Part shown: positions 52,094-53,657 of the stretch, piece after piece | Layout: each line of letters opens with the position of its first letter | How positions within the stretch are numbered: position 1 is the stretch's first letter | NCBI GenBank assembly: GCA_000002445.1 | Contig: CM000207.1 | Location: 1,984,001-2,048,000 of the forward strand | DNA: 64,000 bases | Source of the DNA: Trypanosoma brucei | Lineage: Eukaryota | Reading direction: 5' to 3' | Made by a program: the position numbers and the translations under genes | Notes under the pieces: model-generated | What the model was told of the DNA's origin: nothing | The model's database searches: none | What the model saw: the letters and a program-made list of their open reading frames with translations, nothing else

Positions 52094-52842
52094 CTATTCT
52101 TTTTTCTCTTTTTTTTCGCGTCCCAATGTTGCCTTATCTTGATTTAATTATTTATTTTGAAATAAATACGGGGAGAGCACACCAGGCATTTATATCGAAG
52201 GAATGCTCCCAGAAAAAGTTGGTAACTATCAATGTGAGGCTGTATCAAAAGCAATGTTTGTCCAACCCAAAGGTTTGGTACGATTTGGACAAACTTCCGC
52301 CCCTCCGCTATGCTGAGTTTGTCTCCCACATTCCGTGGGGAATGGACCAGGCCGTGATGAAACTACGGCGGTTCCAGAACCCCCCCCCAAAGGGAAAATG
52401 TTACGGATGCAGCCTCTTTTTGTGTAAAATGTGAAAAAAGTTTTTCGAAAACATGCTTTGAAAGACGATATATGGTTGCGAATTCTCTCCCCCTCCCCCC
52501 CCCCAAAAGACCACATTAACCCTTCGCAGCTGGTCAAATACTCAGGGGTAACTCGTCGTCTTCCCCAGTGCATGCGTTTGCGCGTGTCGGCAGCTGTGGC
52601 GGAGCGTCGATGTCCCTAGTGGGTGCTCGCGTGGCTCAATGCGGAGGTGGGGATAAGACCGCATGATGCGGGAATGTAAGACTCTGACTGGGGACATCAT
52701 TATAAACAACCCTCCCCTCCATGCCTTCAAAAAACGCAAACAGGGTTACACCTCCAACGCCCATGTCGCAAACGAAGGAGCGAAGCCTTGCTGATTTCGG
52801 TTCCAGGAACGATACCATACAAATTTTTAGTGTTGACGCGCG

Positions 52843-52913
52843 GCGCAGTTGGTCTAGTGGTAGAATTCTCGCCTGCCACGCGGGAGGCCCGGGTTCGATT
52901 CCCGGACTGCGCA
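52843..52913 (+). tRNA. tRNA-Gly(GCC): tRNA-Gly (anticodon GCC), 71 nt. CCA is not encoded.
   Basis: GCGCAGTTGGTCTAGTGGTAGAATTCTCGCCTGCCACGCGGGAGGCCCGGGTTCGATTCCCGGACTGCGCA. The 7-bp acceptor stem is perfect (GCGCAGT/ACTGCGC). A-box TAGTGGTAGA and B-box GGTTCGATTCC are present. Anticodon loop CTGCCAC. The body is near-identical to the universally conserved eukaryotic tRNA-Gly-GCC. Confidence 0.9.
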
Positions 52914-52916
52914 TCG

Positions 52917-52921
52917 TTTTT
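52917..52921 (+). terminator. RNA polymerase III T-run terminator downstream of tRNA-Gly.
   Basis: T5 run (gcaTCGTTTTTct) begins 4 nt after the tRNA 3' end. Confidence 0.6.
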
Positions 52922-53657
52922 CTGCCGCATGCAGAACCCACCATTTTTTTTTACTTATTTTGGAACGAACTTGCTATTTTTTTTTGTTTGGTTGCTGTTG
53001 TTTGTTTGCCATCATTTCGCTACGGTGACGATAATTCCCCGCCACGCTTTGTCTCCACATTTGCAAAACTTACGCTAACGGAGGGTGCTGTAGAAATATG
53101 AGCGTCCCCCGGAGGCACCGCAAGTCCGCTTGGTACATCAAACCTCAGAGACGAGAAGGGACGAAACTCGTTTAGACCCGATGTTGGTCGGAACGGGCCA
53201 TTCACACAGGTTTCACCGTCGCCGACCCAGCTCACCATACAAAACTACCCCTCCCGCTTAACATCCACGGACACCGAGACGCTCATATGATAATAACTAC
53301 GATTTCGCAGTTGCTGTTTCACAGCGTGTATGAACTGTTTCAAACCACACACGCCAAATGACGCGACACAACAAACTAATAAACACACAGTAAAAAAAAT
53401 GAATGAGCATCCAACTGCGCAAATTCATTGATAGAGAACGCCTGTAAACAAAACCACAAACAATGCAGCCATGTCCACACTAGAAGCGTATAGCACTGTT
53501 ACCTCTCACTAAAGTGTTAAACGGGAACTGCAGCTGCTGCGCTACAGAGTCGATAGTCACAGCGTCCCTCGGTGTTTGCATCCGGAGAGATGATGACGGG
53601 AGGGAACCATTTCCAGCTTCTTTTTCCCACTTCTTTTTTTTTCAGGAGCTTGTAACG

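Follow-up and report, generated by a model that had tools for sequence, protein, structure and literature searches.

A predicted-functional tRNA-Gly(GCC) gene with no divergent companion in Trypanozoon-specific DNA at the edge of a convergent strand switch in Trypanosoma brucei

A gene for tRNA-Gly(GCC), which decodes GGC and GGU, lies on the plus strand of Trypanosoma brucei chromosome 9, opposing the flow of a minus-strand array of protein-coding genes that meets it head-on. Its position raises the question of whether the gene lends its internal promoter to a divergent small RNA or acts on the RNA polymerase II (Pol II) transcription running toward it. The window analyzed here is a 64-kb stretch corresponding to positions 1,984,001-2,048,000 of T. 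brucei TREU927 chromosome 9, in which ARAGORN found a single tRNA. The gene and its elements, in window coordinates, are as follows:

52843..52913 (TREU927 chr9 2036843..2036913), plus strand: tRNA-Gly(GCC) gene, Tb09_tRNA_Gly_1 (ARAGORN, Rfam, match to Padilla-Mejia 2009)
52850..52860, plus strand: A box of the internal Pol III promoter, TGGTCTAGTGG (exact motif position)
52892..52902, plus strand: B box of the internal Pol III promoter, GGTTCGATTCC (exact motif position)
52917..52921, plus strand: primary Pol III terminator, T5, 3 nt past the tRNA ("5" in Padilla-Mejia Additional file 2)
52944..52952, plus strand: backup terminator, T9, 22 nt past the first T run ("9, 22" in the same file)

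The identification of this tRNA is far beyond chance. The Rfam model RF00005 matched it over its full length (model positions 1-71 of 71) with a score of 59.2 bits against a gathering threshold of 29 and E = 2.9e-10. ARAGORN placed the anticodon, gcc, at position 33, and the 7-nt loop in the RF00005 alignment reads CUGCCAC. The acceptor stem (GCGCAGT/ACTGCGC) pairs perfectly over 7 bp, and the sole flaw flagged by the covariance model is one non-canonical pair in the D stem. An earlier note, made from the sequence alone, had described a textbook plus-strand tRNA-Gly(GCC) with a perfect acceptor stem, A and B boxes, and a T5 terminator; the description was accurate, and all of these elements could be assigned exact positions, the A box by the established tRNA promoter consensus. 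The gene had already been catalogued as Tb09_tRNA_Gly_1, locus chr09-I, among 11 single tRNA genes (Padilla-Mejia et al. 2009, BMC Genomics 10:232). Anticodon, strand, length, and chromosome 9 coordinates agree with that entry, window positions 52914-52953 reproduce its published 40-nt trailer TCGTTTTTCTGCCGCATGCAGAACCCACCATTTTTTTTTA letter for letter, and nothing differs. The arrangement is a well-described one, of which this locus is an unremarkable instance.

T. brucei has only three Gly-GCC genes, on chromosomes 7, 9, and 10, and because the three copies are identical in sequence, RNA reads cannot tell them apart. The trailers of the chromosome 7 and chromosome 9 genes both open with CGTTTTTCT. 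In Trypanosoma equiperdum and T. b. gambiense the chromosome 9 tRNA is 100% identical, and its flanks carry substitutions and an indel. In the annotation the gene overlaps a "hypothetical, unlikely" ORF, Tb09.211.4080, the neighbor of Tb09.211.4070.

Divergent pairing of tRNA and small-RNA genes, on which the idea of a companion was based, is genuine in T. brucei, where published 5'-to-5' gaps are 97 bp for U6/tRNA-Thr, 96 bp for U3/tRNA-Arg, and 109 bp for 7SL/tRNA-Lys. Gaps of 96-109 bp put the +1 of a companion at 52746-52733, on or just before a run of six Ts on the minus strand. Three features of the upstream region bear on the question:

52729..52734, minus strand: T6 run at the expected start site of a divergent Pol III companion
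52698..52842, plus strand: proximal 5' flank, kept in three Trypanozoon sequences (alignment)
52601..52697, no strand assigned: polymorphic segment containing a palindrome and UGAUG/CUGA (blastn break, alignment)

The T6 run, read 52734-52729, would stop a transcript from the canonical start within ~12 nt. The earlier note had seen this run and argued from it against a companion; the run and the argument stand, with the coordinates corrected from 52732-52737. At the divergent spacing of 96-109 bp there is thus a terminator instead of a small-RNA gene. An Rfam scan of the whole window at gathering thresholds, of the Infernal/Rfam type that had been proposed for this region, called the tRNA and no second RNA family. 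With the threshold relaxed to E<=10 over 51.4-54.2 kb on both strands, only the tRNA and sub-threshold noise were returned from a database that may miss some trypanosome RNAs; we dismissed as such noise an sR17 match of 21 bits within the coding sequence of Tb09.211.4070 and a mascRNA match overlapping the tRNA itself. RNAfold detected no structured RNA upstream of the tRNA: the two strands scored z = +0.63 and z = +0.61, no better than shuffles, and the sole interval from T run to T run past the T6, 52728-52505, gave z = +0.63 against shuffles. With neither an Rfam match nor a folding signal upstream of the tRNA, we rejected an snRNA, 7SL, U3, vault RNA, or structured conserved RNA there.

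The upstream sequence is known from Trypanozoon only, in sequences that are 97.5-99% identical, so that covariation analysis is not possible, and the informative difference among them is a wholesale replacement. Across the three Trypanozoon sequences the proximal flank (52698-52842), which contains a same-strand T5 at 52824-52828, has four substitutions, all in T. b. gambiense, and in that subspecies positions 52601-52697 are replaced by ~57 nt of unrelated C-rich sequence. The replaced segment is the one that holds the palindrome CCGCATGATGCGG (52659-52671) and, on the plus strand, UGAUG (52664-52668) and CUGA (52684-52687), only 20 nt apart. The hairpin and the box C/D-like motifs singled out earlier as deserving a proper scan are therefore present, and do not merit that attention: perfect 6-bp inverted repeats whose arms are 0-8 nt apart number 230 across the window, a density of 0.86 per 240 bp, so that CCGCATGATGCGG is at chance level; the region folds like its shuffles; and the segment is swapped out in T. 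b. gambiense. A box C/D snoRNA was sought as a C box (RUGAUGA) toward the 5' end followed at a distance of 50-150 nt by a D box (CUGA) toward the 3' end, the two closed by a terminal stem; in 52100-53650 each strand offered a single C..D pair, neither of them closed by a stem of >=4 bp, and a box C/D snoRNA upstream of the tRNA was rejected. The expectation that no divergent companion exists is borne out by the concordance of the Rfam scans, the folding z-scores, the position of the T6 run, and the replacement in T. b. gambiense.

The genomic setting is described by the following features:

53658..54011, minus strand: final conserved gene of the minus-strand polycistronic unit; transmembrane protein of 117 aa (exact match to TEOVI_000341100)
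51524..52093, minus strand: Tb09.211.4070 / XP_827549, 189 aa, "T. brucei spp.-specific protein" (exact look-up)
48302..48823, minus strand: 173-aa orphan ORF, TEOVI_000009200 and its TREU927 equivalent (annotated)
45800..51800, no strand assigned: convergent strand-switch region, siRNA locus CTU34, Tb927_09 2,029,800-2,035,800 (ORF orientation, GC skew)
44958..45809, plus strand: final gene of the plus-strand unit; 283 aa, NIF/CTD-phosphatase-like (ORF orientation, look-up)

The two minus-strand genes between which the tRNA had been placed, 51524-52093 and 53658-54011, are both real annotated genes. Orthologues of the latter occur in Trypanosoma, Leishmania, Leptomonas, and Angomonas, with syntenic tblastn matches. 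Tb09.211.4070, the first ORF reached past the tRNA when reading along the minus strand, has no Pfam family and looks GPI-anchored; upstream of it on the minus strand are a polypyrimidine tract and an AG, a plausible splice-acceptor context. A homology search with the 173-aa orphan gave a single match, at 100% identity, and none outside Trypanozoon.

The view of the tRNA as a lone gene within a minus-strand unit was not sustained, as the window holds a convergent switch and the tRNA lies ~1 kb from CTU34. The plus strand carries all large ORFs as far as 45.8 kb, the minus strand all those beyond, and the switch in orientation falls between 45.8 and 48.3-51.5 kb. The GC skew changes sign near 51.2 kb, and at 49.5-51.2 kb the plus strand is purine-rich, corresponding to pyrimidine tracts on the minus strand. 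ORF orientation and the flip in GC skew together indicate that two polycistronic units converge here. T. vivax and Leishmania share the convergence, and the NIF gene at 44958-45809 is syntenic with their NIF genes across the switch. The coordinates of CTU34 in Additional file 3 of Tschudi 2012 fall at window positions 45,800-51,800; the locus gave 97 top-strand and 81 bottom-strand small-RNA reads, and in dcl2-/- 2.4% of the wild-type level. By these published data, transcripts overlap there and siRNAs arise from both strands in dependence on DCL2. The tRNA is 745 bp past the point where the conserved genes of the minus array end, and ~1 kb outside the CTU34 border.

The entire interval from 45.8 to 53.66 kb (~7.8 kb), tRNA included, is specific to Trypanozoon. 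At the syntenic loci of T. vivax, T. cruzi, T. theileri, and Leishmania we detected neither a tRNA nor any Rfam match. A DHHC gene occupies this position in T. vivax, T. theileri, Leishmania, and one further kinetoplastid contig (partial match P0154), the last of which has the ancestral g109-DHHC order and no tRNA. No remnant of the DHHC gene was found by tblastn at 1e-3 in the window or in the T. equiperdum and T. b. gambiense loci. Two homology searches returned no T. congolense proteins. In this comparison the acquisition of the tRNA is bounded only as later than the split from T. vivax. Derivation of the 7.8-kb interval from a transposon or repeat found no support: the interval has no notable direct or inverted repeats, one (TTG)n microsatellite, and no Pfam domains. 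tRNA loci in general show weak synteny.

Taken together, the data show what the gene is and how it is built, that it has no companion, that it sits at the edge of an ancestral convergent switch, and that the DNA around it is found in Trypanozoon only. We consider it probable that this is an ordinary, predicted-functional tRNA-Gly(GCC) gene that would act as a roadblock to Pol II. The internal A and B boxes would recruit the Pol III machinery, and Pol III transcription would end at the T5 run, with the T9 as backup. We infer that a Pol III complex standing head-on to the minus-strand Pol II unit would form a roadblock that helps end or attenuate that unit; the tRNA may also halt read-through of the plus-strand unit just upstream of itself, and a roadblock here would limit the overlap of convergent transcription. 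That tRNA genes serve as Pol II termination elements, which the earlier note took as given, is supported as general knowledge by reviews and by work in L. major. According to the reviews, trypanosomatid Pol II terminates at regions of convergence and just upstream of tRNA genes. In L. major, Pol III genes on the opposing strand give termination that is independent of base J, and the same source reports that loss of base J leaves most T. brucei termination sites unaffected. Most T. brucei tRNA genes are said to sit at convergent switches; another source gives 34.6% of loci. Neither Reynolds 2016 nor Schulz 2016 gives chromosome 9 identifiers in its main text, and a literature search for Tb09.211.40xx identifiers returned only Padilla-Mejia 2009.

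A role as roadblock would fit this literature and also the low siRNA yield of CTU34, which in our re-analysis of the published table, from which CTU10 and CTU29 are missing, is the seventh lowest of 48 CTUs. In the same table, CTUs with a Pol III gene at <=1.5 kb have a median of 26 normalized reads versus 230 for the others (one-sided Mann-Whitney p = 0.007), a post hoc comparison of five tRNA-associated CTUs with a margin picked after looking, which at a margin of 0 leaves n = 3 and p = 0.11. Some minus-strand transcription does take place beyond the tRNA, given the bottom-strand small RNAs of CTU34 and the plausible splice-acceptor context of Tb09.211.4070, and whether it arises by read-through or by re-initiation, the block therefore cannot be absolute.

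Other readings of the gene differ widely in how well they fit these data. That it is an inactive relic, a tRNA pseudogene or tRNA-derived repeat brought in with lineage-specific DNA and left untranscribed, could be argued from the recently acquired, non-syntenic DNA around it and from the annotated ORF that reads through it; it is scarcely credible for a full-length 59.2-bit match in which A box, B box, and terminator are all intact, and which is identical to the other copies of a gene present only three times, has stayed invariant in three subspecies despite the substitutions and indel in its flanks, and shows no repeat or transposon signature around it. It is also very improbable that the A and B boxes drive a divergent minus-strand small RNA, be it an snRNA, 7SL, a vault RNA, or something new. 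The authenticity of the U6, U3, and 7SL pairs favors this reading, as does the location of another Gly-GCC copy ~460 bp from U4; set against it are the lack of any Rfam family on either strand even at E<=10, the T6 run that would truncate the transcript at once, the shuffle-like folding of 52728-52505, the exchange of the central 97 nt of that interval in T. b. gambiense, and the listing of chr09-I as a single gene by Padilla-Mejia. We regard the reading as close to refuted already.

A passive passenger deserves more thought: the tRNA gene may be normal and have no part in Pol II termination, having landed in insertion-tolerant DNA near the switch, and the units would end through H3.V, H4.V, base J, and their own convergence further left, at ~48 kb. 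Composition suggests that the minus-strand unit runs on to ~48.3 kb, past the purine-rich stretch, and the annotated minus-strand ORFs downstream of the tRNA, the bottom-strand small RNAs, the working of the ancestral switch without a tRNA in T. vivax and Leishmania, and the generally weak synteny of tRNA loci are all compatible with it. We nonetheless judge both parts of this account unlikely, as reviews and genome-wide studies tie tRNA genes to Pol II termination, tRNA-associated CTUs yielded fewer siRNAs in the exploratory test, and the published right border of CTU34 ends before the tRNA. A bolder extension of the roadblock is that the tRNA arrived with, or seeded, a Trypanozoon terminal module that replaced the DHHC palmitoyltransferase gene, the head-on Pol III complex splitting off a mini-unit; we hold this to be quite improbable, and equally so that such a mini-unit is short, attenuated or separately initiated, and encodes orphan proteins including Tb09.211.4070. 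Were it true, the tRNA roadblock would set the expression of lineage-specific surface genes and the amount of CTU34 siRNA.

Relatives of the preferred arrangement, that of a tRNA gene as a Pol II roadblock at a switch, are known. The convergent switch of L. major chromosome 3 (Martinez-Calvillo 2004) likewise has a lone tRNA where two units meet, for which a role as termination signal was proposed; that tRNA is located between the two units, whose termination has reportedly been mapped by experiment, whereas here two annotated lineage-specific ORFs separate the tRNA from the point of convergence. The consensus A and B boxes of the U6/tRNA-Thr, U3/tRNA-Arg, and 7SL/tRNA-Lys units (Nakaar et al. 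1994) could in principle, like those found here, be an upstream promoter element; unlike those units, this locus has no small-RNA gene at 96-109 bp, a terminator in its place, and unconserved upstream sequence. In the tDNA barriers and insulators of yeast and human (e.g. Raab et al. 2012), a Pol III complex on a tRNA gene likewise affects nearby Pol II or chromatin independently of the tRNA product; insulation there depends on TFIIIC and cohesin, whereas the trypanosome effect would be collision or termination of polymerases at the ends of polycistronic units.

That tRNA genes mark or help form Pol II termination sites is textbook knowledge for trypanosomatids, and this locus adds little to it. 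What is new is the synteny result, Trypanozoon-specific DNA in place of a DHHC gene, together with the connection to CTU34 and the explicit ruling out of a companion. The re-analysis of the published table hints that convergent units near Pol III genes yield fewer siRNAs, and the locus offers a clean natural case in which a switch that is tRNA-free in T. vivax and Leishmania gained a tRNA in the T. brucei lineage.

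ARAGORN identified a single tRNA gene in the 64-kb window, a tRNA-Gly(GCC) on the plus strand at 52843-52913. It matched the full length of the Rfam tRNA model with 59.2 bits (E = 2.9e-10; gathering score, 29), and no other Rfam family reached threshold in a scan of the whole window. The 7-bp acceptor stem is paired throughout, and every sequence feature that defines a tRNA was found in the gene. The tRNA-Gly(GCC) that the earlier note had described, with its acceptor stem, A and B boxes and T5 terminator, was thus confirmed by ARAGORN, by the Rfam score, and by the following motif positions.

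52850-52860, plus strand: A box
52892-52902, plus strand: B box
52917-52921, plus strand: T5 terminator
52944-52952, plus strand: T9 backup terminator

The gene is a canonical Pol III-type tRNA gene whose promoter is internal and whose terminator is doubled; its sequence is the same in the subspecies compared, although the flanks differ. Another T5 run on the tRNA strand (52824-52828, 15-19 nt 5′ of the tRNA start, inside ACAAATTTTTAG) is kept in all three subspecies; it may act like a TATA element or halt Pol III reading in from upstream. Among the single-gene loci of Padilla-Mejia et al. 2009 (PMC2695483) is chr09-I, with a tRNA-Gly that overlaps Tb09.211.4080, a "hypothetical protein (unlikely)", and their tables list Tb09_tRNA_Gly_1 (GCC) at 2036843..2036913 with the trailer TCGTTTTTCTGCCGCATGCAGAACCCACCATTTTTTTTTA, in which T5 and T9 are 22 nt apart. 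That trailer is identical, letter for letter, to window positions 52914-52953. Since coordinates and trailer both match, the gene is the already catalogued Tb09_tRNA_Gly_1, and the window corresponds to TREU927 chromosome 9, 1,984,001-2,048,000. T. brucei has three Gly-GCC genes, this one included, and they are reported to be 100% identical to each other (PMC2695483).

Genes identified around the tRNA are as follows; g109 and g200 are genes called in the syntenic loci of relatives.

44958-45809, plus strand: NIF-family phosphatase gene (NIF; exact-sequence match)
51524-52093, minus strand: Tb09.211.4070 / XP_827549, "T. brucei spp.-specific protein" (exact-sequence match)
53658-54011, minus strand: TEOVI_000341100, the g109 orthologue (exact-sequence match)
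55539-56036: g200 orthologue (synteny comparison)
56445-58517, minus strand: NADPH-cytochrome P450 reductase, a 690-aa ORF (homology search)

When ORFs of at least 180 aa were surveyed, excluding those embedded antisense in a larger ORF, all were on the plus strand from 34 to 45809 and all on the minus strand from 48302/51524 to 63642. The GC skew changes sign at ~51.2 kb, and together these two features indicate that the window holds a convergent strand-switch region, which was overlooked when the tRNA was first taken to lie alone within a minus-strand unit. Tschudi et al. 2012 defined this region as the convergent transcription unit CTU34 (Tb927_09 2,029,800-2,035,800; window 45,800-51,800). 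It yielded 97 small RNAs from the top strand and 81 from the bottom strand, and in dcl2-/- cells 2.4% of the wild-type level remained. In its sequence and its published small RNAs, the locus fits a convergent termination region. The tRNA gene is ~1 kb right of CTU34, and 745 bp separate it from the stop codon at which the conserved part of the minus-strand array ends. [quoted passage not shown] Within the convergent region there is a perfect (TTG)16.7 microsatellite (47729-47778). The T. equiperdum OVI assembly breaks at 50127-50633, with two contigs ending at either side; this interval, purine-rich and with a GC skew of about +0.3, appears hard to assemble.

The 690-aa ORF matches an NADPH-cytochrome P450 reductase of T. 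equiperdum at 100% identity and those of other trypanosomes at 55-60%. Gene order was compared across the regions that surround its orthologues in T. vivax, T. theileri, Leishmania, and T. cruzi (two loci). The order is reductase, g200, g108, g109, a DHHC palmitoyltransferase gene (DHHC), and then a switch to NIF in T. vivax; reductase, g192, g115, DHHC in T. theileri; and reductase, g218, g189, DHHC, then a switch to NIF in Leishmania. Neither a tRNA nor any Rfam family was detected in these three loci or in the two from T. cruzi, and a further kinetoplastid contig has g109 followed by DHHC without a tRNA. Neither the window nor the corresponding loci of T. equiperdum and T. b. gambiense contain the DHHC gene, and the T. 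brucei group has the tRNA and orphan ORFs where T. vivax, T. theileri, Leishmania, and the further contig have DHHC; ORF 48302-48823, for instance, matches only a Trypanozoon orphan. Gene order and the Trypanozoon-only ORFs mark the interval from NIF to the g109 orthologue (45.8-53.66 kb), tRNA included, as DNA specific to Trypanozoon that took the place of older sequence at a convergent switch which is itself ancestral. The interval bears no repeat or transposon signature and no Pfam domain. The reductase and the g200 orthologue, neighbors in the other species, are separated in one T. cruzi locus by ~10 kb nearly devoid of called genes (L002 12110-22044).

Tb09.211.4070 has hydrophobic termini, signal-like at the N terminus and GPI-signal-like at the C terminus, and an acidic middle with an imperfect internal repeat of 33 aa (99 nt); it looks like a putative surface protein, and a Pfam search of it returned no family. 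Between this gene and the tRNA are long plus-strand C runs (minus-strand G runs) at 52488-52504 and 52376-52384, which differ in length among subspecies. Two plus-strand ORFs are likely annotation artifacts: 52721-53101, of the Tb09.211.4080 "hypothetical, unlikely" type, runs right across the tRNA (a 118-aa gene call in gambiense), and 53660-54250, 196 aa and His-rich, is antisense to the conserved g109 orthologue (197 aa in gambiense).

The published 5′-to-5′ gaps of T. brucei divergent pairs are 97 bp (U6/tRNA-Thr), 96 bp (U3/tRNA-Arg), and 109 bp (7SL/tRNA-Lys). Gaps of 96-109 bp would place the first base of a companion at 52746-52733, on a minus-strand T6 run or a dozen bases before it; the run exists as the earlier note stated, at 52729-52734, three bases from the position reported there. 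When Rfam was searched at permissive settings over 51.4-54.2 kb, the tRNA and subthreshold noise were all that came up, and no companion family. The sole other possible Pol III interval on the minus strand, 52728-52505, is no more stably folded than its shuffled versions (z = +0.63), and the same holds for the plus-strand upstream region (z = +0.61). The hairpin and box C/D-like motifs, raised as a lead, did not hold up: the palindrome CCGCATGATGCGG (52659-52671) is no more than chance would give, since 240 bp should hold 0.86 repeats of this kind, and none of the C/D box pairs has a terminal stem, so a box C/D snoRNA was rejected. The strongest evidence against both a companion and functional motifs came from an alignment of the window to T. 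equiperdum and T. b. gambiense. Conservation covers the tRNA, both terminators, and the ~145 bp immediately 5′ of the gene. The segment carrying the hairpin and UGAUG/CUGA (52601-52697), which lies 146 bp upstream of the gene and spans ~97 nt in both TREU927 and T. equiperdum, is replaced in T. b. gambiense DAL972 by a C-rich stretch of ~57 nt that is unrelated to it (L008 9443-9498). The hairpin and motifs are not functional elements, and no companion RNA is present, which upholds the earlier reading of the T6; unlike trypanosome divergent tRNA/small-RNA units, the chr09-I tRNA has neither the defining spacing nor the partner.

Published accounts place Pol II termination where units converge and immediately upstream of tRNA genes, and a tRNA gene frequently accompanies termination. 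Most T. brucei tRNA genes sit at convergent switches; by another count, 34.6% of tRNA loci do (PMC2695483). In L. major, opposing-strand Pol III genes bring about base-J-independent termination, and codirectional ones are bypassed more easily. We infer that a Pol III complex stably bound at the tRNA would oppose minus-strand Pol II. Bottom-strand small RNAs in CTU34 and the plausible polypyrimidine/AG splice context of Tb09.211.4070 indicate that some minus-strand transcription passes or reinitiates beyond the tRNA, and the block is not absolute. The published CTU table was crossed with published Pol III gene coordinates (48 CTUs), and the siRNA yield of CTU34 was seventh lowest. Where a Pol III gene lay in the CTU or no more than 1.5 kb from it (n = 5), the median was 26 normalized reads, versus 230 for the other 43, a ~9-fold difference (one-sided Mann-Whitney p = 0.007) obtained with a margin chosen post hoc; at zero margin, n = 3 and p = 0.11. 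With so small a sample and a margin picked after the data were viewed, the association of a nearby Pol III gene with fewer siRNAs is suggestive only. The original observation is correct but ordinary, and its boundary interpretation repeats established knowledge; what the analysis adds is limited to the synteny of the locus, its tie to CTU34, the ruling out of a companion RNA, and an exploratory comparison of siRNA yields.
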